62,206 bases of DNA from Nemertoderma westbladi (lineage: Eukaryota; Animalia; Xenacoelomorpha), in the NCBI GenBank assembly GCA_032718475.1, contig JAUCBJ010000987.1, positions 1-62,206 on the forward strand. Reading direction: 5' to 3'. The notes below the pieces were generated by a model. The model was given only the letters and a program-made list of their open reading frames with translations. It did not search any database and was not told where the DNA came from. Numbering within the stretch: position 1 is the first letter of the stretch; the number at the start of each line of letters is the position of its first letter. This document shows, one piece after another, positions 1 to 57,895 of the stretch. The translations under genes were made by a program, and so were the position numbers.

Positions 1-1618
1 GACGGTGGAATGTTCTTTTACGTCTACTTGGATGAGATCTATTTCCCTTGCCTTCAGTGTCGGTGGTATCGCCTTCCTCAGATGATGTATACCCTTGTCT
101 TTTGGGAGTAGATCGACTCATCATCTGCATATTACTAGCTGCTAACTGTTTACTAAAGTCGTCTTGCTTCTCTTGAAGATTTTCCAACTCCAGTTGGATG
201 ATCTCTTCAGCCGCTTTTCGTTCTACTTCCGCCACTGCTGCCGCCTTTGCTTCTGCTGCTGCCGCTTTTGCTTCTGACGCTGCCGCTTTTCGTTCTGCTT
301 CCGCCACTGTCGCTTTTCGTTCTGCTTCCTCCACTGTCGCTTTTCGTTCTGCTTCCGCCACTGCTGCCGCTTTTGCCGCTGCCGCTGCCGCTTTTGCCTC
401 TGCCGCTGCCGCTTTTCTTTCTGCCTCTGCCACTGCTGCTATCTTTCTGTCTTCTATACGTTTTTTCCTTACTTGTTCTTCCTTTTCTCTAGCGATGCGG
501 AGTTGTTCATCGAATTTAGCTTGGTTCGCCGCTAACCTATCCACATCAATCGCATCTAACACAAGTTTGGCTCCTTCGCTATTAGGGCTAAGTCCCTCTA
601 GCCTTCTCCTCAACTCTTCATCTCCCACAAAACGCTGATAGTCTGACAGATAGATATCAATGGCATCCTTCTTATGCGGTTTCTCTGCCGTCGCTTCACT
701 TTCCACTTGGGAAAAAGTGGCGTCCGTCGATTCTCCATGAGTTGAGCGCTCCTCCAATTGAGCTTTCCACTGAGCTGCTCCCTGAACCTGGCGACTCACC
801 CTTTGAAACCAAGTCTTTACGGCAACTTGCAACGACGTGTCTTGCTTTCGTTTAGAAGCCTCCTCAAAGGCGGATAAGATTAGCCTAATCCGCAGAACTC
901 TTTCTCTAACTTGATAAAGCAGCGATCCCTGCTCTTGAGGTCCTTGAGGTTGTTGAAAAAGTTGCTTTTCTATTCGCTCCATAGAGCTGAAGAATCCCTG
1001 TGCGTATCCGGCTGCGGACCTCTTCCACACAGCTGGATCGATGGTTTCCTTGGCTACTCCCATCCGGTGTATGTCTTCCCAGGCAGCTTCTGATAAATCA
1101 AACGGGAGTCCGGGTCCGGGGAAGTTCCATTGCGACTCGACAATAGACTTCAGTTCTTCACTAGTGTAGCCCGCGTAGCTATCTCTAGTTGACCGTTGAC
1201 TTCTCGCCCAATCGATCTGGTGTTCTTCCACCGCGATCAATAACCCAGCGAGCACGGCTGCAGGAAGGATGAGAAGGGGATCCGTATAAACCGCATCCGT
1301 CATCTCTGCTCCGCTCTCTGGTGTCAGCTCTACAGTATCCTCACTACTGGAGCTGCTGGGCCGCTGAGGAATAAGTTCTTGACTAGTGGGTTGTTGCTGT
1401 TCCGCTGCCTTTTGGTCCCGCTTGACCTGAGCTCGAGTGCCTATGATAGACCTACGATGTTGGACTAGCCTAGGTTCTGTTATTACTACTGGAGGGATGA
1501 CCTTCCTCACAGTGGGAGGTGAACTGGATTTACGACCAGACGGTTGTACGTCTCTATCTGAGTCGCAGATAGTTACATCTAATAAACTGTCTGACAGGTT
1601 CTGCTTAGTATCAGACAT
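1..1618 (-). CDS. gag-like N-terminal region (coiled-coil, AAAEAER repeats), apparently open to the window edge
   Basis: ATG at 1618 (MSDTKQ...) matches ORF 36855-37418. The frame at the window edge (DTEGKGNRSHPSRRKR) aligns with A2 DSECKSNKSRSNGRRR. Confidence 0.7.
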   Translation of the reverse strand, partial: MSDTKQNLSDSLLDVTICDSDRDVQPSGRKSSSPPTVRKVIPPVVITEPRLVQHRRSIIGTRAQVKRDQKAAEQQQPTSQELIPQRPSSSSSEDTVELTPESGAEMTDAVYTDPLLILPAAVLAGLLIAVEEHQIDWARSQRSTRDSYAGYTSEELKSIVESQWNFPGPGLPFDLSEAAWEDIHRMGVAKETIDPAVWKRSAAGYAQGFFSSMERIEKQLFQQPQGPQEQGSLLYQVRERVLRIRLILSAFEEASKRKQDTSLQVAVKTWFQRVSRQVQGAAQWKAQLEERSTHGESTDATFSQVESEATAEKPHKKDAIDIYLSDYQRFVGDEELRRRLEGLSPNSEGAKLVLDAIDVDRLAANQAKFDEQLRIAREKEEQVRKKRIEDRKIAAVAEAERKAAAAEAKAAAAAAKAAAVAEAERKATVEEAERKATVAEAERKAAASEAKAAAAEAKAAAVAEVERKAAEEIIQLELENLQEKQDDFSKQLAASNMQMMSRSTPKRQGYTSSEEGDTTDTEGKGNRSHPSRRKRTFHR

Positions 1619-2936
1619 GACTATGTATACCGTTGAATGTCTACTGCTGTATTACAGTCTGAGTAAGTCTAGTAACTCAGTATTACCTGTTAGCCTAGTA
1701 ATTAATTACCGGTACTGCTACTCAGTGCAGCGTGATATATATAATATATTAGAATACCGGTATGCTTATAGTATATATAATTATTATTACAGACTAGGTT
1801 TATCACAGAATACCGGTATAATTTTAGCACAAATATATATAAATATATAATAGGCCTATTGGAATACCGGTATACAGCTTACAGTTTGTAGGATATATAA
1901 TTCTGAAATAGAATTAATTACAAGTACCGGTATAATTTCAGCCTAGATTTATAGAAATAAAGATAATAGGCCTATCGTAAATACCGGTATATCAATTATT
2001 TCAAATAATTGAATTTCTGTTACTTTAGGGTTACTTGGTTACTTTAACTTACTTTATTACCGTTATTTGAGCAGTAATCCAACTGATATTGAGGCCTAAT
2101 GGTTGTATGGTAGGCCTACGATTTATAAATCGTTAGATTTGATTTATAATATATATATACCCGTTTTAATGGGTTTTGTCAATGTTTGAAATAAATGTTA
2201 TTATTTCTGGGGAGCAATCACTACACAAAGCAGTGCGCTTTCAGTGAAGTGTTACGTACAGGACACTAAAACAAATAATACTAATTTACCTAAGTTACTT
2301 AATACTACAAATTACGTACAATTTGGGTTGAGATTACAATCTCTAAATAAACACAAAAATTTTACAAAAACACAAATACGAATTTTAGGGTAATTTTACA
2401 AGAAGTCTACAAACCAGCCTAACAAAGGGTTAGAAAACTGATTATTACAGCGGACAGGGTACTACGGTATTTGAAATAATAAGTAGTAGTAAATACACTG
2501 CGTTGTCTAGATAGGAAAATACCACCGCCTGACGACCTATAGCCGTATCGCTATAGGTTCTACGTTATGTATCACGGAGTGTTCCTACCTAGAAGTTAAT
2601 AGAGCTAATCGAATGTGCCTATCAACCACTTTACAATACAGATATAATGTCTACAATAATTACTTCGGAAAGTACTGTACACTAAACCCTAAATTAGGTA
2701 CGAGTACTTATATAACAGATAATCAGTAGTTAAATATACTTGAACAGCTAAAAGAACCACGGCATCTGCTGGAGTGACCGATGCACAAAATCACCAGTCT
2801 TTACCTACGCCGAGCAGCCCGTGTAGTACCGGGGTTAATTTAACTATAGCGGTATGTATAACAAACACAATTACTGTAGGAACAAACTTGGGGACTTGAA
2901 TGTTGCGAATAATCGCATAAACTCTGAATAATAAAT

Positions 2937-3496
2937 ATTACGCTACGCGTACAAACTACTCAAACAAAATACAGACCGAACACTGACAGACTACTATCAA
3001 GCCTAAACAAACTACGGTATATGCAGACTCCGAAATGATTAGGGAGTATGCGCTCTAACCCAGTAGTGCGACTTATTCTTTAGTTGGGGGTTTACCTTAC
3101 AGCGTTGCTGCCCCTACTTCCTAACCGTACTTAATCGGACAGATGATCTACACACGCGGCAATCCGTTCAGACCTAATAACAGCCAGACAACTATCCAGC
3201 CTACAAATTATCTAAGTAAAATTATACGCTACCCGTACAGACTTACACAAACAAAGTACAGACTAAACGATGGCAGACTACTCTCAAGCCTAAATAAAAT
3301 ACAGGACATGCAGACTCCGAAATGATTAGGGAGTATGCGCTCTAACCCAGTAGTGCGACTTATTCTTTAGTTGGGGGTTTACCTTACAGCGTTGCTGCCC
3401 CTACTTCCTAATCGTACTTAATCGGACAGGTGATCTACACACACTGCAATTCGTTCGGACTTAACAGCAATCAGACAACAGCTCAGCCTACAAATC
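2937..3496. repeat. 287-bp tandem duplication in the A1 leader
   Basis: GCAGACTCCGAAATGATTAGGG occurs at 3023 and 3310. A2 has a single unit (~57350-57625). Confidence 0.85.
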
Positions 3497-3807
3497 GTCT
3501 GTACAATCTGATCAGGCTTACACGCCTTCTGTTCAATACTGGCTTACAAATAAATAAAACTTGACAGAAATAAGTAAAATCTCAATAAAAAATCAGGGCG
3601 GCCGTTCCCTGATTAAGTACTAAGACCTACCGGTATATAATTATCAAAATCGAATAATACTGCTGTACCTGTACTGCTGTAGGTACCGGTCCGGGTGGTT
3701 AGGTAGTCAGGCCTACTGGTACCGGTTCTGGCAATTGGGCCTACTGACCTACAGATGTACCGGTTGACCGGTACTTTCAACTTTATTGCTTACTGCAACA
3801 AAGAAGC

Positions 3808-3819
3808 TATATCCTTTAA
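3808..3819 (-). promoter_or_regulatory. Non-tRNA primer-binding-site candidate of A1 (sense TTAAAGGATATA)
   Basis: Flush with the LTR end, lacks TGG, and is the exact inverted match of 4580-4591 inside the LTR. Confidence 0.65.
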
Positions 3820-5058
3820 TGTTCGCGCTTTCAGACCTTTGGCAGTTTAACCCACCAAATTAAGATGTCTTCTAGATATTAAATCTGTTTTTTAGTCTAT
3901 GACAAGTATTTGATTCACTACACTAGTCGAAACCAATCCGTGCGCGACCATTCACCCGCTGGATATTCCCGGGAGATTGGGTTCGACGGTTTAATTTTAT
4001 TGCTATGTAAGCCTAATGTATTATTCGACCGACAGTATTATATAATCTCTGACAATATTATTCACCTTCGGTAATATTAACAGTTCCTTTAGGACGTGGC
4101 GCTTTATCTATATAAACAGAGTTATGACTTAAACTACTCACAACGATATGGCTTAATTATAATTCACATATATGGCGCATTCTTTAGGAATTGCTTCTTT
4201 AACAGACTCACTCATACACAATGCTGCACAATACTGCACACTAATCTGCCAATCTTCACTGATTTTAGTCACATATAAAAGGAACACAGGCTGACTCATG
4301 TAGGGTCTATCAAATAACATTAGATTCACTTCAAACCACTTTAACATAAGTCACAATCGTTATTGGTAACCTTTCTCTCTTACCTTCGGTATATCAAGAA
4401 TATTGGGTTGCGGGGTTATTTATCGTTATTCCAAATATAATTATTCATCAACCATATTATGAAGAACTGACAGCAAATAGCAGTATAAAACAACAACTGA
4501 ACAGTTAGGTAGATCGGTACGTCAGTACCGGTATGTCAGCAGTGAGATATTTACAGAGTGATATTTATCAGGACGTCAGTTAAAGGATATATGCCCTTTA
4601 TAATTAAACCTACCAGTGTACGACTAAAAAACAGTACAGCACAAAATACTTCCAAGCCGTTCTTTCTTTGGCTCAAGACTGAATGTAAGCACTGCACATA
4701 GGCATTGCGTCATTTCTCGGAAATTTTCTGTACAAGGAGCCACAAAAACGCTCTCATTGGCTGACTGAACTGAGAGACGCCGTAGAACAAAGGAAATCAA
4801 CACGTATGAATGTCAGCTGTTAACCGTAGTCATAGTAACTACTGTTCAAGAGTAGCTATCACCCTTTTGCGTCACGAATTGCCATAGAATCATAAAATAT
4901 GCCTTTCACAGTACACATACGGAGGAAATAGGTCTTAGATCCTCTAAAAACACCGATACAGCAATAATACGGTCTCTTACACTTATTAAATCAACTACAG
5001 AGTATTTTAATGCAAAAGATAATAAAAATAACGGGGCAATTCAGCAAAGGCTTTTACA
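3820..5058 (-). repeat. 5' LTR of A1 (~1.24 kb)
   Basis: On the + strand it starts TGTTCGCG and ends CTTTTACA, the same termini as 57896-58937. The left terminus also matches 28525. Confidence 0.8.
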
Positions 5059-7719: not shown

Positions 7720-7826
7720 TCTTCGCCCATTGGGTCCTTGAATATTCAGATTAATGCTGGGATAAATATTTGAATTTTGGTATACTATCGGTAAAAATTA
7801 ACACCCTAAATTTTATATTACTATTA

Positions 7827-28524: not shown

Positions 28525-28641
28525 TGTTCGCGCTTTTAGACCTTTTAGCAGTTAACCTGCCAATTTAAATGTGCCTTTAATTATAAATCGAGTTTTGCCC
28601 TTACCAATTACCTGGTGTACTGAATTTACATCCGCCGAAGC
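28525..28641 (-). repeat. Remnant of the A2 3' LTR
   Basis: 117 bp matching 57896-58012 with about 3 differences. Ends where the B2 LTR begins. Confidence 0.85.
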
Positions 28642-32290: not shown

Positions 32291-32297
32291 AACCCTA

Positions 32298-35658: not shown

Positions 35659-37418
35659 CTACAGTCGGAGTACTATAGTAGGGAGTCTTTCTACTCTTAT
35701 AATTTGGTCTGTTGACTCTCTATTACTTACGTCTACATTAGCTAGCTCCCTTCTCACCGTAGGGGGTAAGTTAGGCAACTTATGTCTGTGGGTCGCTCTT
35801 CTACGTCCATTTGAACGAGATTTATTACTTTTACACTCGGAATCAGTATTAGTACCTTCATCTGAGGAGGTAAATCTATGTCTTCTGGGAGTAGATCGAC
35901 TCAGTAGTTGCATCTGAGTAGCTGCCATTTGTTTATTTAAGTAATTTTGTTTTGCCTGAATGCTCTCCAACTCTAGTTTTACCTTTGCTTCAGCTGCCCT
36001 TCGTTCAGCTTCTACTGTGGCAGCTTTACGTTCTACTTCTGCCGCCGCTGCCTTTTGGTTAACTTCCGCTGCTACTGCTGCCGCCTTTCTATCAGCTTCT
36101 GCTGTTGCAGCCGTTGCCGCCGCTGCTCTTTTATCAGCTTCTGCTGCTGCCGCTGCTGCCTTTTTATCAGCTTCTGCCGCTGCCGCCTTTCTATCAACTT
36201 CTGCTGCTGCAGCTTTTAATTCAGCTTCCGCAGTTGCAGCTCGTTTCCGATCTTATATCTGTCCTTTCTTTATTTGTTCTCTTTTGTCCATCTCGATGAG
36301 AATGCTTTCATCAAATTTAGCCTGCTCCACAGCTAATATCTCCGCATCTTGGGAGTCCAAAATGAATTTGGCTTCTTCACTATTGGGGTGAAGACCAGCT
36401 AGAAGTCTCCTTAGCTCTTTGTCACCTATAAATCATTGATAATCCAACAGATAGATGTCAATAGCATCCTTCTTCTGCGGTTTTTTGGATACCGCCTCGC
36501 CTTCCATATGGGAGAAAGTTGCATCGGTTGATTCTCCACAGGCTATGCGTTCAGCTAGCTGAGCCTTCCATTGTGTTGTTCCCTGGACTTTAGCATTCAC
36601 TCGTTGGAACCAAGTCTTTACTGCCACCTGCAGCGATGTATCTTGACTTCTCTTCGAGGCCTCTTCAAAGGCTGAAAGGATTAATCTGATCCTCAATATA
36701 TGTTCTCTTACTTGGTAAAGCAGTTCTCCCTGCTCTTGAGGTCCCTGTTGTTGTTGAAATAACTGTGCTTCTACTCGTCCCAAGGAGTTGAAGAATCCCT
36801 GGACATATCCTGCTGCTGACCTCTTCCATACAGCAGGATCTCGGGTGTCCCTAACTACGCCCATTTGATATAAATTTTCCCAGGCAGCCCTGATAAGTTA
36901 AATGGGAGTCCGGGTCCGGGGAAGTTCCATTGAGTCTCTACAATAGACCTTAGTTCTTCCAACGGGTATCCAGCGTAACTGTCCCTGGTCGATCTCATAT
37001 ATCTCATCCAGTCCGCTTGATGTTCTTCTACGGCTATAAGTACTCTAGTGAGCACTGCCCCAGGAAGAATCAAAAGTGGGTCGTGATATACCACTGTTTC
37101 CATCCTTGCTCCGATCTCGGGCGTTAACTCTTCGGTGTCGGAACTAGAGTTACTACGCAGTTGAGAAATAACTTCTCGGTTCGGGTACTGTTGCTGTTTT
37201 TCAGCCGTCGCTTGGTCTCGCTTAACTTGAGCCCTTGTGCTTATAATAGACCTATGGTGCTTCACTAGCCTAGGGTCCGACACGACTACTGTAGGGATGA
37301 CCTTTCTTACAGTAGGAGGGGACTTAGACTTTGGTCGGGGCCTTCCTATGCTTTGATCTGGGTCACAGATCGTCCTTTCCAAGAGACTATCTGACAGTGT
37401 TTGTTTTGTGTCAGACAT
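35659..37418 (-). pseudogene. gag-like N-terminal region of A2, disrupted and truncated
   Basis: Homologous to 1-1618. Has a 1-bp deletion near 36890 and a premature TGA at 36433. Confidence 0.75.
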
Positions 37419-38535
37419 AATTTATTTTATAGTTGAATGCCTATCACGATAATAACAGTTAAAGTAAGTCTAGGGGAAATCAGTATCAACTGTCAGTCTC
37501 GTAGTTACCGATATTGCTACTCAATGTAACATGGTATATATCTAGTATTAGAATACCGGTATACACCTATAGTATATATAACAGTATTATTACAGACTAT
37601 GATCAGTCACAGAATACCGGTATATAAGTTTAGCCTAATTTATATAAATATATAATAAGCTTACTGTAAACACCGGTAATGTCAATAATTTAATAATAAC
37701 TGATTATCCAAATTTTAGGAATTATTTCCCTTTACTTTATGGCTGATATTAAGCAGTAGGTTCTACTGATATTAAGACCTTTTGATGTATAATAGGCCTA
37801 TTAATTTATAAATCTGATTGAGTTAATTTATAAATATATATATATATATATATACCCGTGATGGGTTTTGTCAATATTTGAAATAAATGTTATTATTTCT
37901 GAGTAAGAAGTCACTACACAGAGGCTGGACGCTCTCAGTGGAGTGCTACTTGTTAAGACACTAAATACTGATAATTCTACTTAACTAAGTTACTTATCAC
38001 TACAAATTACTTACGTATCGGGTTAAGATTACACAATCTCTAAATAAACAATGAACAAGTTAAAGTACAATTTTTAGGGTAATTTAACAAGAAATTTACG
38101 AACCAGACTAACAAAGAGTTAGAATTTCTGGTTCTTACAGACTGACAGGAATTGAGGTATTTTGAAACCACTAAAGTAGTATTCAGTACGTTGTGTTGTC
38201 CAGATAAGGAAATGCCACCGCCTGACTGCTTATAGTCTACACTATACGCACTACTTACCCAGAGTGTCCTATACCTAGAGATTACTTATCGAAGCCAACT
38301 ATAGCTAATGGACCTATTAACCACGTTACAACACAAATATACTGCCTACGCACTAAATTAACTTTCAGGAAAGCACTGTACTCTAAACCCTAAATTAGGT
38401 ACTAGCTCTTATACAATATATAACTTACAGTTAAATATATGTGAACAGCCAAAAGAGCCACGGTATCTGCTGGAGTGACCGGAGCACTAAAACACCAGTC
38501 TGTCCTACTCCAAGCAGTCCTGAAGTAGTACCGGG

Positions 38536-40717
38536 TGATAAACAACCGCGACCTCTATACTAACAGCAGAACTGTTGAACAGACAAATACCCGTTAATAT
38601 CCTTCTGCCAACCTAATGAGCTCTCGTCTAACCAATAAGACACAAAGACTGCTCTACTGTTAAGTAAAGGGGATCAGGAGCGTGATATTACTAAATTGTA
38701 AAGGTTGCTAAATACAAAACCGCTACTTACCGTTAGATGGCGCTAATCTGCCGTCCGCTAATATATTTACTAAATTTACACAACTCCTGCAAAATCGCTT
38801 GTTCCTTTCTCTACCGATCGTTCGATAGAGAGCTAACTGTTCGAATCTATGAGCCACGCGGGAATAACCAAAACAATAAACCCGAGTCGGCTCCCTAAGC
38901 TTACTTAAGACGAGTGCGAGAGGCTTTGCACTCAGAGTATTCTTACGCCTAATTTTACCACTATCAAAGCACGCTATTGCCTACGTCCTTTCTAATCGCG
39001 AATACTGGGGGTTCCCTAACGTAATGTGTGAATGCGAGAATATTTAAAATATCAAAATGGTACAGTATTTGTCTTTACGTGGATAGTATCACTCTGGGTC
39101 TAAACTTGCCTGCCGCTGGCTTTAGGCCAGCAAATTACTAGCGTGTTGTGTGTACCGAATAGTGCGATCTAGCTGATTGCCCGCTAATGCAAATAACCGC
39201 TCAGCGTGAATAGTTTACAGTACTCTAATTATTACCTTAGCTACTCTCCGCTATGCTGCGTACTAATTCCTAATTTTTACTAATCAATTACAGTCACAAA
39301 TATGTAACAGCGTACTAATTACTAAGAGTTCCAGAACGCGTAATTCTAATTTACTACGCAACAGGTTTCGCTAGTAACAGCCTAAATTGCCGTATTACTT
39401 TGACCTAATCAGTAACTAATTGTTGTAACTAAGAAATAGAAATCAATCAAAGAGAAAGGGGCGCCTACCTAAACATTCATAATCATAGGCACACTTCAGT
39501 ATCACACCAATCAGCATCAGCAATCACAGTTCGCAATTATGCAGTTAACTACTGTATAGCTCACAATTATGCGATTCACTATTCGTACTCCACACTCAAC
39601 GTTATAATACGCGCAGGCCTCTCCCGGATACATCTAGGCTTCCTAACTAACCCGATTCCTGCCCCCCTAATACTAAATAGAGACGAAACCTGGATCATCA
39701 GCCCCCTAGTTACTGTACCGGCGAATGGTCTGCGTGTTACAGTGCAAATGCCCGCCCGCAACGGTGAACCAGCGTTGCCCGTCTTTGAATCCTCCGCTCT
39801 CCCCTAGTCGCTCAACCCCCCGATGTGCCCACCGCCTACTGGCACCTTAGCCCTCATTATGCTAATAGCTACCGTAGCGGCACATGCAAATCACAAAGTC
39901 TGACAGTCTCAGAAATCCCTTAGGATTATTGCGTAGAAAGGAATCACATAGAACCATTAACAAAGATAGAAATCATAGTTCCAGTTGTAATTAGCAGTAA
40001 TCGATAGGATTAATTGAGAAACACAATCAAGAATAATCGCACTAGCAAATCATTTGGAGAAATTAATCGAAAACAGCAAATTGCAGAAATACGCTAAAAT
40101 ATCAGTCAAAAAATGAATAGAGACAGCTCAGCAAGTACAAGGGTGATAGATAGAGCTCTACCGGCACACCGCCAATTTATAGGTGATCCGAGTGGGATGA
40201 TGCAATAGGGTGACTCAATCGCTCTCCTATTGGCTCTCCAGTCCGCGCTAGCATTAAACCAAGCTGGAAGCAGTTAGTCCAATAAGGAGGCCGGATTGTA
40301 GCCCTATTGCTCCCCAAACCTCAAATTATTACCATATATGGTAATGGATCATGTTCCTGGCTGCTGAATGGCCAGGACAGCATCCCTATATGCTAGCCCT
40401 ATTGAAGCTAATATCAGCAAGCACGAAATCCAGGGTCCGAATAAACTTGCTACCCTGGAACTATCTACATATATCCTAATACAAAATTACGTAGGTAGGG
40501 CTACATATTATACAAAATGGATGGATTCAAATATATGGGCGTTTTGGTTTCCCTATCTAAATATCATTGTGCTATTATGCCTTATCTAAAATATTATGCT
40601 GCACAACGGACTAATATTGCGTACAGTATAACGGACTAATATATTATACTGTATAATGAACCAATATATTATACTGTATAATGGCTAATAATGTGTACAG
40701 CGCCATATACCGTAACA
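38536..40717 (-). repeat. 3' LTR of C (2182 bp)
   Basis: Near-identical direct repeat of 55087-57241, with a few substitutions and short indels. Confidence 0.95.
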
Positions 40718-41206
40718 CCGCTCCAAGGGAAATCATATAATGTTTCCCTCCAATTGTAGAAGAGTATAAGGTGATGTATACAAACAAAATAAATTTCTTT
40801 CAAATAATCTAAATAACACAATAATTCTACTATTTACAAATATTGCCATAGATATTGCATAATGAATTTACATACAAATTAAAATTACAAAAATATTATC
40901 TCTCTCAATGTTAACGATTATTACATACAAATTAAATTTACAAAAATACTGTTTCTCATTCGCACTACATAATGATTACTACATACAAGATCAAATATAA
41001 AATTTTGCTAGGGCAAGTGAAAGGAGTAAGCCAAACCCGCAGGTTTGTCTCCCCAATCACTTCCTTCGCCTCTCTCATAATATAAATTCAAATAATTGCG
41101 CAACTAGTGTATATGAGTCTAGTCGGATATTTCTAAAATGCTACAATATACATCAGAGCGACGATGATGTATATATCTAGAGTCTGTCGCCCTGTGATAC
41201 GATGCA

Positions 41207-44200
41207 TTAACGACCCGCTCCTGGGTTCTTCGGGCTCGCTCCTCTCTTTCGCCCCCTGCCCAGATACACCAATCGTCCTCTAGTCGACTCTGTTGATGGC
41301 GTCCGTGAGGCGTCACTCCCCGGAACCGGCGACGATGTTCCCTGAGCCCCGACAGACTCCCGGCTCGTACTTCTCCCTCGGCCTCGTCCCAATTGTCGTG
41401 CTCCCGTGGTCGCTTCCGCCAACTCTTCCTTATGCAGTTGCACACGCGCTTTTTCAGACGCTCCCTGCGCCTTGCGCTGCAACCTTTGCGCTTCTATAAT
41501 AGCGTGATAGTGGTCGTCCTTGACTTGATGCTTGTCTTGGACCCCTCCTCCTGGTTCTTTCCGCGAGCTTTGAGCTCCAGCGGTCGTCGCTGTGGTCGCT
41601 GCGATCCTCTGTTCCTCTATCCTCTCAGCGGTCAATGACCCCACTGGCACATGAGTCAACAGGAATTCGTTGCGGTATTGTATAGCCGCCATCCTCCAAT
41701 CACCTCGCGCGCGTACCACTTTTCTAGTCTCCGTAAATACACCCTTCGTGATGCGATCGCAAATAGCAACGAAGTTCCAGGTGTACTTATTGTCCATATT
41801 CAATTGTCTGAAGTATTCTCGGACTACGATAACTCCAGTGTTCTGTGGAAGGTCTTGAGCAGTTAGGATGAGTTCCTGATATTGTGGTAGCGATTGTAGA
41901 TATGGCTCGTACGCAACATGCGATGGGTCTACCGCCCAAAATCCATACCCCGCCTTAAATGGTAACCAACGCATCTGCGCTTGAATATGGTAATCAGCCA
42001 CACTCTCCCACTTATCTAACATCTCCCGAAGTAGGTTAGCGCTATGGTTTTGAAAGGAATCATCTCGCAGCTGACATCTCGCGCTACGATGTCCCTTTAC
42101 CCCACAATATCCGCATTGAGAAATGAAGACGGTGCACGTGTGAAACGAATGGTCGGTCTCATTACACCAACGACAGACCTTATGCGGCGCCTCTACTACC
42201 GCGTCGCACGACTTTAGATTGTGCCTTGTGCTGCCGCACAACTTGCACCTACGCGCTTGTGGAAACCAGGCCCTCTCGTATATGAGGTCTCCAATCGGTT
42301 TCGCACTTCCTTCTTTCCCAATGTCTAATACGATGTCGTCCTCTCCGGTCAACGGTTGTCGATCCGGAACAAAGTAAACATCCTCGCCCTTGTCCTCTAT
42401 CTCCAATATTTCCTCCCGCGTTCGTTTTGGATGTCTTCTCCACCGGAAGATCTACTCCGAACATCTCTACTAATGTCTCCGGCCAGCCCTCCTTAACAGG
42501 TCTATCAGCCTCCGAGTGGAAGGGAGTACCAAACCCGCGGGTTTGATTCCCGAACCACTTCTCCAAAGCTTCTGGCGTCGGATACTCCATCGACGGTCGG
42601 TCTCCCAAATCTCCGATGTTCTGTCGATATACTCCTTCGAATATCGCTAATCCTCTCCTAACCATCGACGTATTCTCTAACGATTGGTTGAAGAACGGGG
42701 TTAAGAAACGCTTCATCACGTCGGATTGGATTCCCCCTTTCGAGCGAACGTATTGATCTCCTCCGTATACCAATGGATGACGCTTCAAAACTCGCGCAAC
42801 GATATCCGCTAATAAACAAGTCACCGTGTTCGACTCAAGCACCAAATAATATTGTAGCGACGCACGGGGTGGCGCGCAAATGTTCCAATACACTAACGCT
42901 TGCCGCTTGAAGTGGGATTTGAACTCCGCTCCCGGTGGCATGTTGTATTCACCATACGCCTCCTCGTACTTCTTCTGCGTCTTTAACTTAAAGTCCCAAT
43001 TATACAATAAGTGTGCTATAAAGCCCATACCAGTCTTGGCAGAGTTGGGATACTCCCTATAAATTCCAATATCCTGTGCCCATAGCAACAATAGCTTGGT
43101 GTCGACAAACGGTCTCGGCAATCTATCTTCCAGATCAGTCATGGCGTTGAAGTCACTCTCCAAATCGCTCTGGACTCCCGATCCTACCTTGACGTAATCT
43201 TGGTTGAGAATAGCCTCTCTAACTTTCTTGGGTAGCATCCTGGCGTCGATACGCTCCGCTCCGTGCATACCTCCAAAATCGGTTCCCTAGGATCCTTCCC
43301 CTTCCGATATTGTGTCGTTATGATGGGCTCCGGTCTCTCTCGATCCGCCCTCACACGCATAAACACATGAGTCACACCATCGGCCGCACGAATTTGAATG
43401 CACTTGCTAGTCAAACATTCTTGATGGGACCCTCCTTCATTATCATAAAACATCACCCTCCAATCTTGCAGTGATTCCTCCGTTTTCCTCCACTGACGCT
43501 GAATCTCGTCTGATGGGGTCCACATGCGCTCGATCGCCTTGTGGTCATCATATCGGGTATAAGAACCCTTCCTCCTCAGCCACGTCTGGTCTACCTCCTC
43601 GTTGTCTGGGAATGTAGCCACCGCGACCCATACCTTGATGTACTTATCCAACCATCCGAATAGTTTGCTCTCCTTCCCCGGAGCTCCAATCTTATCCAAT
43701 GTGTCGTAATCTGTGATCTGCATTGGGACATCACGCAAGAACTTCGCGCATAAAACTTCCCGTAGACAGTCAACGTTCCAATGGTCCGCCATTCTTACCA
43801 TCGGCAAGAATCGTATCGCTTCTCGCGACTCCGGATGATCTACTAATATCGCAGGTTCGGTGCCGTCGGAATAATACACTGGTCGGGGTTGAGATACGAC
43901 CTGTGGAACAAATCCGGTCACTCTCCTCGTCTCCTCTTGATGTCTATCCGCGGTCTTATTATACTCCGCTATCCTATTCTCAACTAACTCTTTCGCCTTC
44001 GCCGCTCGCTCCTCCTGCCGCAACGCGTCTATGTCGTCCTGATGCTCGGGCGTGAGGGTTCTCACTCGGTGAGGTGAAGTAAACGCAGTCCAGGGACTCG
44101 AGAGCTCCAAACCCGCGGGTTTGGTACCCGAGTCCCGTGCCGCTTCGCGCCGCGCCTCTAGATCCTTATAGGCTCGGTACAGCGAAATGGCCGCTGCCGT

Positions 44201-44896
44201 CTCTATCAAACTGGGTGTCGAACAGGGTTTAATCTCCGTATACGGATCTAATGTCGTAACGGTCGGCGTAATGGGTCTCGGAGGTCGCTTTCCGCTGAAG
44301 TCGATACTGATCATCGGGTTGCTCATCGGGTAACCTCCCTCGTTGTATCTAAGGAATTGGTGAGCTGGACATCGCGTTAATATCGGTTCTGGATGTTGCT
44401 CGTCTAGTCGATCGGGAATCGCCACGTCCTGTTTATTCATGCATTCACCACACTTGTAGAACAGCTTGTACACGCTGAAGACTTTCGGCGTCTCCTGATC
44501 CTCGCCTCGAGTCCTCCGGTACAGATGCATTCCATCGAACTGATCTCGGACTGCAGGTAGCGGCTCCTCGTGTCGTAAATACATATTCATATGGTATAGT
44601 CGTGCGATTTCCTCGTCCGGATCTGCGCTGATGTCACACACGTCCAAAGCGAAATCGTAGGGATACCGAGTGCGATACTCTCTCCGCAAAACTTCCATCC
44701 GGTCCCCCAACGCTCTCATTCTTTCCCTCCGTAATTCCTTATCATAAGTCGGTTTGTATTTCCCGTTTAGCTCCATCACGGACCGCCCATGGTAGTAAAC
44801 GTTAGAGTCTTTACATCCTGGTCGCGCGAATGGTAGCTCCGCCTCCTCTCTGGCAGTAAATCCTCTGCGCGGTTGCGCTCTAATATCCTTCTCCAT
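41207..44896 (-). pseudogene. ORF3 of C: unknown N-terminal region, DEDDy 3'-5' exonuclease, three CCHC knuckles and basic tail (two frameshifts)
   Basis: VMFYDNEG; LPKKVREAIL...VKVGSGVQSD; FVDTK; KTGMG; W...QYYLVLES. Knuckles CKLCGSTRHNLKSC, CRWCNETDHSFHTC and CGYCGVKGHRSARC. Confidence 0.72.
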
Positions 44897-45663
44897 TATG
44901 CCTCGCGTATATACATATATATATCCCAATAAGTGCCGTTACGTAACCAATTACACTGTGGGTAAATCAGTTAGATGTCGCCGAAAGACAGACCTCCCGA
45001 ACCCCCCCCCCCCCCCCCCCGCTTTCCAGCAGTTCAGGTTCGACTCTCTAGATCCCGTCTCTTCCTAACTAACTATCCTCTAACCTATTCCCATGCATAG
45101 CGCAAAAACTTTGGAGATAAACTGGCCGTGACCAACTCACTTTTTGATGCCCAAACTACTCCCATTACTCGTACTAAACTACAGTAGTTAGAAAGGACCA
45201 TAGCCACAATACTCGACTATACCAAACCCACAGGTTTGATAATCGAATATCACACATCCTGCAAACTACTGAGTGGGGTCCATGTACGCCTCTGGTGCTA
45301 CTAACCTTTAGCACCTTAGTTGCACTGTTGGCACCAATCTGTGGAAGTTGCTAAACTCAATTTACACTCCTACGTAATATAGCCGTCACCATGGTTTCTA
45401 AATGCTATTTTCCAGGCTTCACGACTTTTCAAATTACTGTTTATCTATAGACGAATTCTAAAACGCGTCTATACACAGCGTCTGGAATTGTCTTGGGTTC
45501 ACTTCTAATTTTTAAAATTTTAAATTTTCCAAAATTTTTGAAAATAAAATTTTGTTTTGATACCCACCAGACAAAACTCAACGCAAATCACCACAACCCC
45601 GCTCCTATGCATTTCCTTGTATTTGCATACGAGGAATGCATACGAAGTGAGTTGCGTCCAACA

Positions 45664-47889
45664 CTAATTCTGTTTTGAGGCAGGAGACAAATTATAATCT
45701 CCCGTCTCGATGCGTGTCTCCTCTAATAACACGATATCTTGGACCGGTCGGTCCAAGGTGTGCAAACCATTAGTTTTACACTTTTTTGGGTGCGGACACT
45801 TGCACCTAATTTTCACAGTGACTGTGCGCACTATGTTTTGCACGTCTGGGTGTGTGTGCAAGATCACTCCTGTCTCCCAATACTTTCTCTTGACAATGGG
45901 TTCGGTTATCAATACGTAGTCTCCCCTTTGGAGACTCCGAACCGTTTTGTACCACTTTGTTCTGGTGGATATGGTGGGAAGATAGTATTCCCGCCAATAT
46001 TCCCAGAATGTGTACGCAACAAATTGAGTCATTTTCCAGCTTTTACGACTATATAGGTCGGCACTAATGGGTTCTGATGCCGGCACAAGAAATGCTGGAC
46101 TCTGCATTAGCAAATGATTCGGCGTTAATGCAACACCGTCTGGCAACATAGCTATCGGCCTCGAGTTTAGGGTATGCTCGATTTCAATGAAAGCTGTGAC
46201 CAGTTCGTCATCGGTAAGTTGTTTGTTTACAGGCAACGTTTTGGCAATGGCCTGCTTTACAGAGCGAACTAAACGCTCCCAACTTCCTCCTCTCCAAGGA
46301 CTTTCTGGAGTATTAAATCTCCACTCTACTCTTTGCGGCAAAAGTGCTGCAGAAATTTCCTTATTCTGTGCTGCTTTATGAGCCGCGTTCAACTCGCTAT
46401 TCCCTCCGACAAAGTTTGTACCCTTATCGGAGTAGAACGCCTTTACTAGTCCTCTCCTGGCCATAAATCTCTTTAAGGCCAGGAGCAGAGATTTGGTCGA
46501 CATGTCTGCCACACGCTCAATGTGTATGGCTCTACTAGCCATGCATGTCAGTAGCAGACCCCATCGCTTGTGGGTCAGCCGTCCACTCTTTGCTTCAATC
46601 GGACCAAAACAGTCCACCCCTGTGTTCGTAAAGGGTGGGTCATATGCCTGCACTCTCGCTTCCGGGAGTTCAGCCATCTCCTGTTCCAATACTCTGGCGT
46701 TCACCCTCTTGCAAACCAGACAGGCGTCGTACATAGTGCCGACTGCCCTGCTTGGCTGCAATAGAATGAATCGCTGTCTCGCTGCCGACAGACAGTGTAA
46801 CCTTCCCGCGTGATGCAACCTCTTATGTATATCCCATAGAATCGCTCTTTGCAATTCTATTGGGTGACTAGGGATTATCACTGGGAACCGAAACTGTGAG
46901 TTTATGTCGACAGTCTGGATTCTCGATCTATGACAAATCAAACCCTTATGGATTAATGGACTCCATTTTCTAAGGGGTTTATAGAGAACTGGTCGTTGAG
47001 CCGATAATAGATGGAATTCTTTTGGGAAGGCACACATTTGATAATGCTTCAAATGCCTTAACTCCGCTTGATCAATCTCATCCTCTGTCAGAGGTTGTTT
47101 CAATTTCCGAATTCGCTCACTATTGGCGCTCGATGGTTCTCTCAAATGTTTCGAATGTTTTAAACAAAGGTACGAAACGTATCGGCTTAACCACGCAGTT
47201 CTTTTACAAATTGTCAGCCAAGAGGCAGACGAATTTAGTAATTTGTCATAAATACTGCATGACTCTAATGCCAGCGACGGTTGTCCGCTAATTAATGGAA
47301 GTTTCGAATCCAAACCCGCAGGTTTGGAAACCAAAGGATCCATCGTGTCGGTCATTTTCTGTCCATCACTTACCAATTGTGACTCCGGTTTAGTCTGTAA
47401 GGGTGGTTTTATGTCGTAACTTACCCTTCCGGACCTAGTAGTCACGTAAGTCTGTTGGTCTGACAGGTCTCCGGGCCGCTCCAATGACTCTTCAGGCCGC
47501 TCAAATGACTCTTCAGGCCGCTCCAATGACTTAAGTTTGGCCTTAGACTTCGACTTAGAGACTTTCTCCACCTTGACTTCTGCATCTTCAGGCATCGGAT
47601 TGGTCACTATCTTTAGTCGCTCTGGCCAATGTTCCTGTGTCCTCGTTAGAAAATCAGGTCCATGCAACCAAAACTCCTGCGACTCTTCCTGACAGAATTC
47701 CGCCGGCATTGCACCTCTCGAAGTTATGTCGGCCGGATTCAACACTCCCAGACAATGTCTCCATTGTTCCTTCGTCGAAAAGTCGACGATCTGAGCGCGT
47801 CTATTGGCCACGAATGTCTTTAGTGCAATATTGTCGGCCGCAATGTATACTAACACTAAGGATGCGTCCGTCCAATAGAATAAGGTCAA
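45664..47889 (-). CDS. pol 3' part: RNase H C-terminus and integrase
   Basis: YWTDAS, NPADITSRG, HHAG...CLVC, GVDCFGP, SDKGTNFVG and GGSWERLV motifs. Confidence 0.95.
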   Translation of the reverse strand: MTLFYWTDASLVLVYIAADNIALKTFVANRRAQIVDFSTKEQWRHCLGVLNPADITSRGAMPAEFCQEESQEFWLHGPDFLTRTQEHWPERLKIVTNPMPEDAEVKVEKVSKSKSKAKLKSLERPEESFERPEESLERPGDLSDQQTYVTTRSGRVSYDIKPPLQTKPESQLVSDGQKMTDTMDPLVSKPAGLDSKLPLISGQPSLALESCSIYDKLLNSSASWLTICKRTAWLSRYVSYLCLKHSKHLREPSSANSERIRKLKQPLTEDEIDQAELRHLKHYQMCAFPKEFHLLSAQRPVLYKPLRKWSPLIHKGLICHRSRIQTVDINSQFRFPVIIPSHPIELQRAILWDIHKRLHHAGRLHCLSAARQRFILLQPSRAVGTMYDACLVCKRVNARVLEQEMAELPEARVQAYDPPFTNTGVDCFGPIEAKSGRLTHKRWGLLLTCMASRAIHIERVADMSTKSLLLALKRFMARRGLVKAFYSDKGTNFVGGNSELNAAHKAAQNKEISAALLPQRVEWRFNTPESPWRGGSWERLVRSVKQAIAKTLPVNKQLTDDELVTAFIEIEHTLNSRPIAMLPDGVALTPNHLLMQSPAFLVPASEPISADLYSRKSWKMTQFVAYTFWEYWREYYLPTISTRTKWYKTVRSLQRGDYVLITEPIVKRKYWETGVILHTHPDVQNIVRTVTVKIRCKCPHPKKCKTNGLHTLDRPVQDIVLLEETRIETGDYNLSPASKQN

Positions 47890-47936
47890 TGTCGTGTCTA
47901 ACTCCTCAATTATCTGCTTACTTACCTCGACCGAAA

Positions 47937-49493
47937 CTACAGCGCCTGTAACTCTGCACGAGGGACAGTCATGTATTTGACCGGCATTGTCTTTGATCTA
48001 GAAGTCACAAAGGCCGTCTCAAACTTGTCCTGACTTACCTCTCGGCGAAGGTAGGCTACCATACCAAAGCCGGTGTCACTTGCGTCACTAAATAAGTGGA
48101 GTTCGAGATCAGCTGGAAATACCAGCTGATTCGGAAAGTAGGAACGGGGTACATCTATATTTTTCAATAGATGCAACTCGGCTTCCCACTCCCTCCACTG
48201 CTTTGCATGTATAGGAGATATTGGTTCGTCCCACTCTACGTCGGACAACCAAATTTTCCTCATGCACGCTCGTGCCTGTAATATAACCGGACTGATAAAG
48301 TTCATTGGGTCAAATAGTCTACTTAATGTCGATAAGCAAATCCTCTTTGTCAAAACTTTGTCTGGGCTACTGGGCTCAAATCTAACTCTTACCTGGAACT
48401 TATCCGTATTCGGGTTCCAAGCGAGTCCCAGTACTCGCGCCATGGGGATTGGTTCTACCCCCAATTCTATGTCTCCGCTCCCGCGATCTTTCACCGGGAA
48501 CGATTCTAATAGGGCCTCCGAGTTAGTAGTGAACTTGGTCAGAGGAAATCCCCCTGTAGCCAAGCACTCTTGCAGGCCGTGAGCCACTTCTATGGCTTGT
48601 TCCGCCGTGTCCTTGGACACCAATCCGTCGTCCATGTAGAAGTTTCTCAAGATGGACTCGATAACCTCTACTGGGTACTTACCAATCTGGGCTGTTGCCG
48701 TTTTCTTTAAAACGAACAGCGTGCCATTTGGACTATCGCGGGCGCCAAATATCCTAATGTACATCTGGTATGTAACCACTGGGCCGGATAAGTCTTCATT
48801 CTCATACCAGAGAAAGCGAAGGCTATCCTGGTCTGCCTTACAGGCTCTTACCTGGTGGAACATCGCCTCGATGTCACAAGTAAATGCGAATCGCCGCTGT
48901 CTAAAACGCAACAGTATTCCAATCAAATAGTTATTCAGGTTGGGACCATCCATCAACTCTGAATTCAGGGACATACCTCTGTAGACTGCTGCGCAGTCGT
49001 TGACTACTCGGACTTTGTCAGGCTTGTCAGGGTGAGTCACATAGTGGTGTGGAAGGTAATAAGTCTGGTCTGTCACTAAGTCAGGGTCCTCTACCTTCCC
49101 AGCAAATCCCTTGGCGAAATAGTTGTTGATCTGGGCGCAATACTTCTCCCTAATGTCCGGATTCTTTAACAACCGAGCCCTTACTCCGTTTAATCTTTTC
49201 AAGGCTAAGTTGTAGTTGTTCTCCAACTTAGGTGGTTGTCGACGCCACAACATTCCAACTTCAAAATGTCCAGTCGGTAGCAGACGTATGGTATCTTCCA
49301 TCATCTCCAGCGACAGTTTCTCATCAGTAGACATGGCTAGGTCATATCCACCGGGTTCCATTGCGTCCCTATCCAGCCATTCGACGGTTCTGGCTCCTGT
49401 CTCGAGGTCCTGGCGTATCAATTCCTTCTGTAGCTCCTCCTCACTGTATTGGAAAATGTCTAGGTCTCGATATTTAGCCACTTGACCCTCCAC
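47937..49493 (-). CDS. pol: reverse transcriptase and Pao RNase H N-part
   Basis: YYLPHH, KVRVVND, DIEAMFHQ, FYMDD, LHLFSDAS and PRAEL motifs. A 1-bp deletion lies near 47942. Confidence 0.95.
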   Translation of the reverse strand: MEGQVAKYRDLDIFQYSEEELQKELIRQDLETGARTVEWLDRDAMEPGGYDLAMSTDEKLSLEMMEDTIRLLPTGHFEVGMLWRRQPPKLENNYNLALKRLNGVRARLLKNPDIREKYCAQINNYFAKGFAGKVEDPDLVTDQTYYLPHHYVTHPDKPDKVRVVNDCAAVYRGMSLNSELMDGPNLNNYLIGILLRFRQRRFAFTCDIEAMFHQVRACKADQDSLRFLWYENEDLSGPVVTYQMYIRIFGARDSPNGTLFVLKKTATAQIGKYPVEVIESILRNFYMDDGLVSKDTAEQAIEVAHGLQECLATGGFPLTKFTTNSEALLESFPVKDRGSGDIELGVEPIPMARVLGLAWNPNTDKFQVRVRFEPSSPDKVLTKRICLSTLSRLFDPMNFISPVILQARACMRKIWLSDVEWDEPISPIHAKQWREWEAELHLLKNIDVPRSYFPNQLVFPADLELHLFSDASDTGFGMVAYLRREVSQDKFETAFVTSRSKTMPVKYMTVPRAELQAL

Positions 49494-52400
49494 TATCTGG
49501 GTTCGCTATCTGTCTGGTCATTGTGGAGTGGTTCCGACAACCTAACATTATCGGGAATCAACTCCTCGTCCGACTCGCTAAAGTCACTATAGTGGTCAAT
49601 ACAGGTTCTCCTAAACTCGTCTATGTCTGGTGGTTCTACTAATGGTGGTTGAGTTATAGGCTGTAATTCTTCGCATCTGTCTATTGGCTTGTCGCCACCT
49701 GTAAACTCATAAGACATGGGTACTCTTGTATACCAACCTAGTATGGTCCTATGGGCATGTGGTCCGTTGACATGCGGCTCAGCTGGTCTTGTTTCCCATA
49801 TTTGGTGTGCGATCAGCTGTTCTGCACCAATCAACATAGAAACATTCCTATAACCTACCTGGTGTCTGGGTATCCTGAGCTTGTCAAAATACTCCTGTGC
49901 TATGGGACTCATCGGCGGCACCTTACCTAACTGCCTGCCGAATCCCTTCATAGCTAGACACTTAAATCCGTCCAATGGCAAAGCTTTCCGTTCTTGTCGA
50001 GTGTGTCGGTCTCTCGGAAGTAGGGAGTCTAGTTCCACCGAAATTCTGTGTCCCTTGAGGTCACCTACCCCATGCATAGACTTCAACTCTATTTGGATCT
50101 CCTCTGCGTCCTGGAAGCTAGAAACAGCTCTCGCCACTTCCTCGTCGATATACGATAATGTGGACGCAGTGTCCAACATCACATATATTCGCTTTGATCC
50201 CTTATCTCCAGTAAGTTTCACTGGAATCACGCTGAATATTTCCGACGTGGCCGATGATAAATACGTCCGCGCGCTGGTCGATGAACTATCCGCAGTGAAA
50301 CCTTGGCAGGTCACTTCTCTCGCGCTCGACTCGCCATCCTCGTCCGACGAACCTGGTTGGTAACCATCGTCCTGGATGCCAGTGTACGTATTCCTCCTTA
50401 TCGATACGGGTTCTTTGCTCCCCTTCCTGTGAGGATTTCGCTGTAAGTAACGGTCCGTTGGGGTATGGAAATCCGCATGTAGCAACTTGTGATGTAGTCT
50501 GCCGCATTCCATGCATCCGTCCTTGCTGTTCGGGCACTGCCGCCGTACATGACCTGGCGCAAGACATGCCCAACAGGTGTCCAACGTCCGCACTTGAACT
50601 CTTCTTTGTTCCGAATTTAATTCTTTGAACCGTCTGCAACTATCTAACTTATGGTCGTCAGATCTTACCTCCTTTAGTAAACAGTATTGGCAACCTACAA
50701 ATCCATCCGGCAACTCCTGTTGCTTTAACCTAGGTTTATCTAACCGCTCACCTGACCATACTCGCGAGTCTGATCTAAAGGCTGGGGTACTCGAATTATA
50801 TTTGTCTACTGAGTTAAATGTCACAGTGGTCCTGTCATCGTCAAAACTTACCATAGACTTACCGGTAACAGGTTTAGACTCTCTCATATTCTCTTCTGAG
50901 AAGTTTGATTTCATCTCTGCTACTGCGTCTGTGGCTATCATGTCATGAATATGCTGAAGTGTCAATACTTTACCTTGGCCCTCCAACTTATTCTCTAATT
51001 TGCGCCATTTCTGTCTGTAACGCATGTTTAAACGTCTTATTACGCTCTTTAAAACTTCGGCGTGATCACCATGATGAGGTAGATTCACCGTCTTCAAGAT
51101 GTCCAATGCGTTCGAAATAGCGTTCGCTAAGTTCAACAGCTCTAACGGAGTTGTAATCCTTTCGCCCTTACCCAAGTCTTCTACTATCGACTGCGCCATC
51201 TTGGTTTTATTCCCGTAGATGTCACTAAGCGTCTTCATCGCTAACTCAAATGCTCTCTCATTGCCGACGAAGTTGTCAGCAATGGCTCTAGGTTCTCGAT
51301 GGAGCATCTGAAGCAAATAGTTGAACTTCTCGTTGGGAGTAAAGGTGCTGTTGGTCAGCTGCTCGTCGACATAGGTTTTGAAGGTCCTCCAGTGCTTGTG
51401 GTTGCCCATAAACTTCTGGGGTTGTTGCGTCGGCAGTCCTTGCCTAGCAGCAAACTTACCTATGTCCCTAAGGGTTGCGTCGTTCCGGGTTAACAAATGG
51501 TTTAGTTCCGCAGGGTTGTTAAGTCTGGTCCTTTCCCGGTGGTTCAAACTTACCTGCTCCGCGTCCGTCCTTCTTTCCTTATAGTTTCGGAACTTCTGAC
51601 GTCTCATGTCTTCCTCTTCATCGCTTGACTCGGTGTCAGTCCTTAGCGCTCGCGATGGTTTGCGCGCCGAGGCCCTGACCCAGGCCTCCTCAATAAATCT
51701 TTCCGCCGAATTTTCGAAATTGGGATTATGGTTATTTGGGACAGGCGTCCTTACCTGAGGTCTATGTGGTATAGTCTCCTCCGATATGCGTACTCGTTGA
51801 CTAGGCTGGACTTTGTCTAACTCAGGCCTGCTAGGATTTGAATTACTTCTTACCTGGGCTGCTTCCTTTAACCGTAGGTTGCTAAGCATGTCCGTTATAG
51901 GTTGGATGTGCGGCGATATAGCTTGCGCTAAACTAGCACTTAACTCATCCCTCGTAATAAATTCCTGGCTAGGGTTCTGTTGTATAGTCGGCTCTATCTG
52001 AGTAATCCGCTGTCTCTCATATGATCCCTCTTCCGGTTTAACCCGGAAGTTCTCCGTCGAACTGGGTCGGCGCTCCATCCGCGTATTCCAAACCCGCGGG
52101 TTCGGTTCGCCCAATACTCGTCCCGTTGGAGTTTCTTCTCTAAATTCTCCGTTGTCTCGTTCGGTATACAGTGGTGCGGTGTTCCGATGACGTAGATCCT
52201 GCGCGATAGGTGAAGCACTAATACCAACTGGCGTGCGATATGTAGAGAATGGTTTAGCGATCCGTGTACTCGTAATAGCCGGACCGGGTATAGGAATTCT
52301 GGTCGTCGTCGACTCGCGTATGGTCGGAGTTCTCGCTTCCTGTTCGGCCTTCTGCAGTGCGAACAGTTCTCGCAACTCGGTCCCTACACTCGCCCCACAT

Positions 52401-53893: not shown

Positions 53894-55074
53894 AGTCTAA
53901 ATAATGTTTGCCTTCCGGCAAAAATATCTCGCAAAAGTTCGAGATATAATTATAATTTAACCGAAATACGGTCAAATTAATTGTCTAATAATCAGTTGGT
54001 CCAAAATGTCAAATAAATTCGCAATGCAATATTGTGAATTTAATGGGGTATATAGTTATAGCAAATACTAGCACAATATTTAAACAAAAATATTATTATA
54101 TAGCTATTATATAGCATTAAATACCGGTATAGCACAAAATAACTTTGAATCTAATACAAAATATTCAAAATAAACTCGCCACCCGAATATTTCTAATTTT
54201 ATATATAGCTCTAATCAACGTAATTTTAATTTCAAATATTATATGTATCCACTAGCGCGTGGCTACATCTTCGGGTTGCGACTCTCTCTAACTCTCTCTC
54301 TAACTTGAGCGATTCAAAAAACCATGGCCGGCTAAACCTAAATATCCTAACTAATAAATTGAGTTCAGCTTCGCAGTTAAACAACCGATAATTTTTTACT
54401 GCTTCCACAAACACACTGGTGCCAACAGAACAACTAACCTTGTTTGCTGTGAGATTCCACGTCCGCGTCCAAAGATTCAGGCTCTCCGCTGATTGCAAAC
54501 CGAACCCGCAGACCCACACGAACCCCAAACTCAGAAGTTCCGTCTTGCCATGTATCTCCAGATGGTATAAAATAACTAAGCGGTTACCTAACATACCGGT
54601 ACAAAACTCTAGAATTTTACAAAATAATTTTGACCGAAACTGAATTCTCGCAAACCTAGCTAAAATTTTCAAAAAAAACTTACTAATTACAATTTGCCCT
54701 AAGGCCTAAGGAACTGCTGTATTCGCAATTAGCAAAAACGCACTACCGTACTTCCACTGTACGCAGTACAGTAAGTAAAACAGTACACCAACCTAACAGC
54801 CTAATTGATACTGTGTGTGTGGTACGGCAAACAAATGTCCTTCTACCGTACGCAGTAACAGCAATCAGCCTAATGTACTACTGTACTATCGTACGCGACC
54901 AGTGAATACAGTAATCTAAACTAACAGCCTAAAGGAATATACTCAATGTCTTACTGTACGCTAGCCTATAGCCTACAGCAGACGATCACGTGCTCTAATT
55001 TATTACTTAATACTGTGATACTACTATCAGCCTAAGAATACACTATTGACTGCTGCAAGCAACAGCCAATAAAG

Positions 55075-55086
55075 TGCGCGTATTAC
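55075..55086 (-). promoter_or_regulatory. Non-tRNA primer-binding-site candidate of C (sense GTAATACGCGCA)
   Basis: Flush with the 5' LTR. 11 nt form an inverted match to 56156-56166 and 39605-39615. Confidence 0.65.
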
Positions 55087-57884: not shown

Positions 57885-57895
57885 AAATCTATTAA
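57885..57895 (-). promoter_or_regulatory. Non-tRNA primer-binding-site candidate of A2 (sense TTAATAGATTT)
   Basis: Flush with the LTR and an exact inverted match of 58590-58600. Confidence 0.65.

Follow-up and report, generated by a model that had tools for sequence, protein, structure and literature searches.

Putative self-priming sites in an unclassified long terminal repeat retrotransposon family and in a nested BEL/Pao element of Nemertoderma westbladi

We analyzed a 62,206-nt stretch of Nemertoderma westbladi DNA (assembly GCA_032718475.1, contig JAUCBJ010000987.1; hereafter the window), with the primer-binding site (PBS) of one retrotransposon family with long terminal repeats (LTRs), family A, as the main subject. 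The window is a nest of transposons that holds two family A copies, A1 and A2, both on the minus strand and composed of the following features, among them a gag-like open reading frame (ORF) in A1.

3820..4981, minus strand: A1 5' LTR, 1162 bp, TG...CA
3808..3819, minus strand: A1 primer-binding position, 12 nt that directly adjoin the LTR end and contain no TGG
4580..4591, minus strand: A1 putative self-primer at LTR nt 391-402, which complements the PBS exactly
4577..4630, minus strand: block common to family A copies, with the primer site and upstream promoter-like sequence, TATAAA at 4602-4597
4379..4384, minus strand: splice-donor-like GGTAAG (by sequence likeness), retained in the LTRs of both A1 and A2 and lying downstream of the primer site
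1619..3807, minus strand: A1 5' leader, ~2.2 kb, containing a tandem duplication
2..1618, minus strand: A1 gag-like ORF, 539 amino acids (aa), continuing beyond the window edge, no family match
57896..58937, minus strand: A2 5' LTR, 1042 bp, TG...CA
57885..57895, minus strand: A2 primer-binding position, 11 nt that directly adjoin the LTR end and contain no TGG
58590..58600, minus strand: A2 putative self-primer, LTR nt 338-348
28525..28641, minus strand: A2 3' LTR remnant, 117 nt, interrupted by another element (C)
35660..38535, minus strand: A2 leader and gag-like frame with stops and frameshifts, terminating at an unrelated insertion, no pol after it

The terminal repeats of A2, bounded by TG...CA and flanked by a target-site duplication (TSD), identify family A as an LTR retrotransposon. 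The A2 3' LTR remnant differs from the A2 5' LTR at 3 positions in 117 nt, and the TSD, GACAA, lies at 28520-28524 and 58938-58942. Thus, the LTR end of family A is fixed by the remnant and the TSD, as a preliminary description of this DNA had held. At the A1 LTR edge, contigs of run X4, one of four runs with family A contigs, start at 3820 or differ before 3819. The same description had noted the lack of a TGG; none occurred in the first 15 nt after the A1 and A2 LTR ends, and a search for a true LTR end elsewhere with a TGG PBS found no CA(N0-5)TGG within 60 nt of the LTR end.

The sequences flush with the LTR ends pair with the LTRs themselves. In A1, sense 3819-3808 (TTAAAGGATATA) and sense 4591-4580 are exactly complementary over 12 bp; in A2, the same holds over 11 bp for sense 57895-57885 (TTAATAGATTT) and sense 58600-58590, and each of these pairing words occurs once per strand in the window. 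Three of 11 PBS positions (5, 6 and 10) differ between the copies, and each of these changes is mirrored in the LTR partner; when PBS and LTR sites were swapped between the copies, pairing reached at most 5 nt. Helix energies were -11.6 and -7.9 kcal/mol for the own pairs compared to -1.3 and -2.8 kcal/mol for the A1/A2 cross pairs. Dinucleotide-shuffled LTRs matched the observed length in 4 of 20,000 cases for A1 and 52 of 20,000 for A2, and at an A1/A2 divergence of ~30% the chance of the mirrored changes is, by a hand estimate, ~1e-4 or less. The sites, their perfect complementarity to the LTR of the same copy and the joint change of both partners, all put forward in the preliminary description, thus held at every position.

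The claim that the two LTR sites occupy homologous positions held in part: they align as homologous only when long gaps are made cheap, whereas default MAFFT places them out of register, an offset accounted for by other family A copies, which skip 35-37 nt between 4539 and 4575-4577. We compared contigs of the four runs (321, 59, 14 and 1 contigs) over 4535-4655. Two variant letters were listed, at 4614 and 4620, and none in 4580-4591, where a missing variant row is not proof of identity. Summed depth in run X1 fell from 258,250 at 4580-4584 to 2,486 at 4570-4574, and loose contig ends in runs X3 and X4 begin at 4574-4579; family A copies therefore appear alike up to the primer 3' end and diverge right after it. 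The segment directly 3' of the putative primer, 4482-4573, is highly variable among family A copies. No spliceosomal-ended joint or intron-split primer site was listed among these contigs, which is not proof of absence. The contigs likewise revealed no transcript starts or ends; one run, X5, may be RNA.

We propose that family A probably primes reverse transcription with RNA of its own LTR and not with a host tRNA, a suggestion already made in the preliminary description that is still the best reading of the pairs. By analogy to the retrotransposon Tf1, the LTR segment would be located at or near the transcript start, anneal to the PBS and be cleaved at the 3' end, probably by RNase H of the element. 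The freed 3'-OH would be extended into U5 to give minus-strand DNA, and the variable segment 4482-4573 would be where minus strong-stop DNA terminates and jumps. In retroelements, plus-strand strong-stop DNA copies the primer into the PBS; here it would copy the LTR-derived primer back, so that the pair would be kept matched and end where the primer ends.

A second family with such a pair, B, is nested in A2. Its reverse transcriptase (RT) region and other features are as follows.

38536..57241, minus strand: family B, BEL/Pao, 18.7 kb, inserted in A2, TSD CCGGG
38536-40717 and 55087-57241, minus strand: B LTRs, ~2.15 kb, TG...CA, 10 mismatches and 43 gap columns
45664..53896, minus strand: B gag-pol in four open segments, with DUF1759, RT region, Peptidase_A17, Integrase_H2C2 and DUF5641
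55075..55086, minus strand: B primer-binding position; a first nt that may form a G-U pair is followed by 11 nt that complement the LTR of B itself
56156..56166, minus strand: B putative self-primer; identical word at 39605-39615 in the 3' LTR

B is a BEL/Pao element by its proteins, which comprise four Pfam families and an RT region with 86 relatives at up to ~40% identity over full length; the hosts named for these relatives are corals, molluscs, a shrimp, a tunicate, a fish and others. Like other BEL/Pao elements, it has DUF1759 gag, BEL-type RT, Peptidase_A17 and integrase with DUF5641 in this order, together with TG...CA LTRs and a short TSD (5 bp). About 820 aa precede DUF1759, and in an RT tree B sits on a long branch among marine-invertebrate-type RTs. 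According to the profile of BEL/Pao (Belpaoviridae, Semotivirus) by the International Committee on Taxonomy of Viruses (ICTV), the PBS is 18 nt long and fits tRNA-Arg or tRNA-Gly, the LTRs measure 0.2-1.2 kb and the genomes 4.2-10 kb (PMC8742986). Unlike this profile, B lacks a tRNA PBS, exceeds both the LTR and the genome lengths, and carries additional ORFs. No TGG was found near its fixed LTR end, and the self-pair score of B was reached by 3 of 300 local shuffles. Thus, B bears the same self-priming signature as family A and provides a classified BEL/Pao case in the window, which the preliminary description had passed over.

Relatives of B were taken from the best 80 of 542 metagenome loci, in which, for 16 families, a direct repeat within the locus itself or within a sister locus showed where the LTR 3' end lies. 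The LTR end was shifted to the nearest CA/TA for L049, L016 and L048; duplicates and L062, whose end is unclear, were excluded, and L063 and L072 were kept despite uncertain ends. Contiguous PBS-LTR pairing was short in most relatives. Self-pairing over 10-15 bp was found in 14 of the 16 families, across a GT-AG joint in 11 and contiguously in three (L038, L056 and L072; 10-12 bp). The joint-type PBS pairs with the last 4-9 nt before a GT donor and the first 5-7 nt after an AG acceptor, and the predicted LTR introns of the 11 families measure 67-409 nt; examples of predicted joints are L007 1201-1276, L011 2185-2261 and L061 2401-2549. One of the two remaining families (L065/L076) is tRNA-type, with a TGG site matching a listed tRNA-Met end and no self-pair; the other (L063, end near 92) showed no clear self-pair and is unexplained.

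The joint pattern was spotted by eye first and then scored by script, and a first unconstrained scan, which gave a high null, was superseded by constrained scans. With splice-site filters, 10 of 17 entries formed 11-15 Watson-Crick pairs, L049 formed 12 pairs with one G-U, and L029 was rejected at the acceptor filter. Under the same filters none of 346 unrelated swapped pairs reached 11 bp and two reached 10, and shuffled PBSs attained the observed length in 0/300 cases in nine entries and 2/300 in L016. A blind scan found a joint helix of at least 10 bp in 31 of 70 loci (20 of 49 families) compared to 64 of 1400 shuffles; 10 loci lacked a 5' zone, many misses lacked an LTR, and a few of the best matches (L026, L043) resemble chance. 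In a CT...AC control, 20 of 21 entries gave 0-9 bp and L056 gave 14 bp (its contiguous 11 plus 3). In the RT tree, from which L023 and L075 were left out, the nearest neighbours of L056 and of the L038/L072 pair were joint-type. The 11 joint-type families are not all independent, because five are related and have a mostly common PBS. In the L011 LTR (1988-2387), TATATAAG lies 31 nt before the first primer base, so that the first exon there would be only ~5 nt. L026 and L029 show a second joint-like match at the element 3' end, probably by chance. A viral contig set contained no BEL relative, and six pattern matches in it failed to extend.

The PBS common to the five related families resembles what we take to be a tRNA T-loop, a likeness that would suit a quite unlikely alternative in which priming is by a host RNA, either a tRNA half or another small RNA, and the helix formed by the LTR site is regulatory or structural and masks the PBS. 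Half-tRNA primers do occur in Ty1/copia elements (PMC6317226). However, with a host primer the PBS should not vary, yet 3 of 11 positions differ between A1 and A2, and the PBSs of the relatives are diverse, each fitting its own LTR. ARAGORN, run on the window and on 40 of the 80 relative loci, found no tRNA, and an Rfam scan of the window gave no match. The three primer words (A1, A2 and B) did not occur in the supplements of PMC13524379, where tRNA ends are listed; this is a weak test.

In the joint-type families, removal of an LTR intron by splicing would put the primer together, and the PBS would be a DNA record of the spliced RNA. The intron would persist only if the template LTR copy is unspliced, so that the primer would either act in cis, as the spliced 5' end, or be supplied by a second RNA that has been spliced; if the 3' LTR copy were spliced, intron-less families like A and B would result. 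As a proposal on which our judgement is nearly balanced, and which we make tentatively, a broad BEL/Pao lineage may have dropped tRNA priming and come to rely on the host spliceosome to build a 10-15 nt primer, with A and B as intron-less derivatives that carry the primer ready-made.

Several points weigh against these proposals. Self-priming, in family A as in B and its relatives, and likewise the primer, the cut and the spliced joint, are all read from DNA alone. The covariation in family A is based on two copies, the run contigs cannot tie a PBS to its own LTR, and the family has no detectable link to BEL/Pao proteins or DNA. B taken alone is borderline under a looser null (p 0.05). In whole-leader folding, the pair probability was 0.93-0.96 with a short tail and 0.00 with a 250-nt tail; it was also high in most shuffled contexts and at most 0.14 for B. 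Leader folding was discarded as support, since its outcome depends on the chosen cut ends. Furthermore, the sole TATAAA near the A1 site begins 11 nt before it and, if a TATA box, would start transcription downstream of the site. Some relatives lack a TATA-like word, and in the others it stands 31-184 nt ahead of the primer, so that a Tf1-like 5'-terminal primer is not general among them.

The position of the TATA words also bears on a reading we consider unlikely, in which the segment lies in U3 between TATA box and start site and the primer acts in trans, from another LTR transcript or the 3' LTR copy. A TATAA word stands 5-6 nt before the site in both A1 and A2, and the conserved block ends 25-30 nt after this word, where such a box would start transcription. 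However, cleavage within the 3' U3 would take R away and prevent strand transfer, and the primer of the relatives must be transcribed, because it spans a predicted intron. Far less probable still is that the inverted match arose by chance or through template switching and has no function. In favour of this, the pairing words are short and rich in AT, and with free choice of GT and AG 46 of 342 swapped pairs reached at least 10 bp, 17 of them among the five related families. Against this, the pairing recurs at the PBS position in three window elements and in nearly all relative families, and the constrained swaps stayed below 11 bp. Self-priming thus remains our preferred reading of the pairs.

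On the present sequence we do not assign family A to BEL/Pao, although we lean towards that class. Its pol is absent from A2, and the part in A1 lies beyond the window edge. The 539-aa gag-like frame matched no Pfam family, Retrotrans_gag included; searches against longer proteins, near-length proteins and 1.84 billion representatives returned 0 matches, and comparison with elements B, C and D and with 86 RT-relative loci gave nothing significant. A gag profile built from 60 loci and B reached E=0.14 on A2. Both gag-like frames stop before a complete DUF1759 would fit. The LP word closing the A2 frame recalls a DUF1759 start; on a DUF1759-start matrix the tail of this frame scored 2.0, under all 44 training rows. 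The long variable N-terminus of the frame, as in B, is a weak hint of BEL affinity, and the 18-nt tRNA-Arg/Gly PBS of the ICTV profile is lacking in family A. The wider suggestion of the preliminary description, self-priming in BEL/Pao-like elements, is therefore supported by B and its relatives, whereas the BEL/Pao-likeness of family A, whose gag-like ORF matched nothing, could not be demonstrated.

A less likely but substantial alternative is that family A does self-prime but belongs to Ty3/gypsy, as an element of the Tf1/sushi type, or else is a non-autonomous passenger, which would make it a known mechanism in a new host. The flush 11-12 nt pair has the geometry of Tf1, the family A PBS begins with TT whereas most BEL relatives begin pairing at G after 0-5 nt, and a BEL/Pao domain search of family A found none. 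On the other side, the gag-like frame also lacks Retrotrans_gag, B too has a long stretch ahead of its DUF1759, and a C directly follows the primer in A1, in A2 and in 11 of 12 relatives (a weak hint). Moreover, this alternative leaves B and its relatives untouched.

Self-priming was demonstrated for Tf1 and predicted for Tj1, Tf1/sushi and Tcn1 (PMC7175516, PMC4600332, PMC6317226, PMC2864245); the Tf1 transcript opens with 11 nt that anneal to the PBS, and it is cleaved by RNase H between nt 11 and nt 12 (PMC7175516). Like Tf1 and Tf2 of Schizosaccharomyces pombe, Tj1, Tf1/sushi and Tcn1 (all Ty3/gypsy), A and B have no tRNA PBS and instead a PBS complementary to ~11 nt of their own LTR. However, the Tf1 primer consists of the 11 nt with which the RNA begins, and its cut was shown experimentally, while A and B are known as DNA sequence. 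B also lacks a Ty3/gypsy chromovirus polyprotein, being BEL/Pao by its own, and family A has neither readable pol in the window nor a Retrotrans_gag match; in most relatives, unlike Tf1/sushi, the primer is predicted to be intron-split. The preliminary description, in tracing self-priming to the Tf1/sushi group, understated its range, as the accessible text of PMC6317226 also gives it as predicted, from PBS-LTR complementarity, for plant Tcn1 and for the plant Ty1/copia TAR lineage, Houba and Osr-1. The latter are plant copia elements outside Tf1/sushi, and that text mentions no splice-built primer for them.

The remainder of the window is occupied by further elements and frames.

28642-33990, minus strand: element C, BEL-like by an integrase segment, inserted in the A2 3' LTR; its 3' LTR spans ~28642-30010 with a purine tract, and its 5' half and PBS are missing
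5032-7067, plus strand: element D, a DUF1759-like gag and protease fragment, into which A1 is inserted
13758-16467, plus strand: endonuclease and RT of a long interspersed nuclear element (LINE), within an element with 720-bp inverted repeats (7825-8538, 18164-18873) that also contains a 494-bp inverted-repeat element (9738-10936)
34107-35660, minus strand: probable LINE 5' part at the break of the A2 gag-like frame, with frames that we take to be ORF1-like
26192-27022, minus strand: intronless 276-aa frame with a C-terminal C3HC4 RING finger, a host gene or transposon cargo
59225-60286 and 21970-22357: small inverted-repeat elements, the former with 15-bp subterminal repeats

The segment 7072-7231 resembles C 32580-32745, which suggests an internal deletion in element D. 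B and C bear additional ORFs 3' of the integrase (41207-44938 and 30073-31494, both minus strand), and B also has a CCHC-rich ORF. One extra ORF of B weakly resembles one of C (24% over 176 aa, E 1e-4); the pair recalls what we presume to be a 3'-5' exonuclease, with no Pfam or PDB support.

BEL/Pao elements are described as tRNA-primed (ICTV), and their replication is called poorly understood. The terms PBS, primer binding and tRNA were not found in the BEL/Pao surveys PMC554778, PMC3118150 and PMC6238403, and the accessible text of PMC8220671 and PMC3601003 holds no statement on BEL priming. A full-text literature search, covering sources other than subscription journals, Repbase and GyDB, found no report of BEL/Pao self-priming, as the preliminary description had also stated, or of a splice-built primer. 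The new part is thus the predicted self-priming of BEL/Pao elements, often with a splice-built primer, and it is carried by B and its relatives. For every family, both the joint and the end of the primer are predicted to the nucleotide, so the prediction is directly testable. If true, self-priming would reach a third LTR superfamily and would explain BEL/Pao elements in which no PBS can be found, and it may make them independent of the supply of host tRNAs and of silencing by tRNA fragments at the PBS. With a splice-built primer, reverse transcription would be coupled to splicing, a connection absent from the literature searched: only spliced RNA could begin reverse transcription, while the unspliced LTR copy would preserve the intron.
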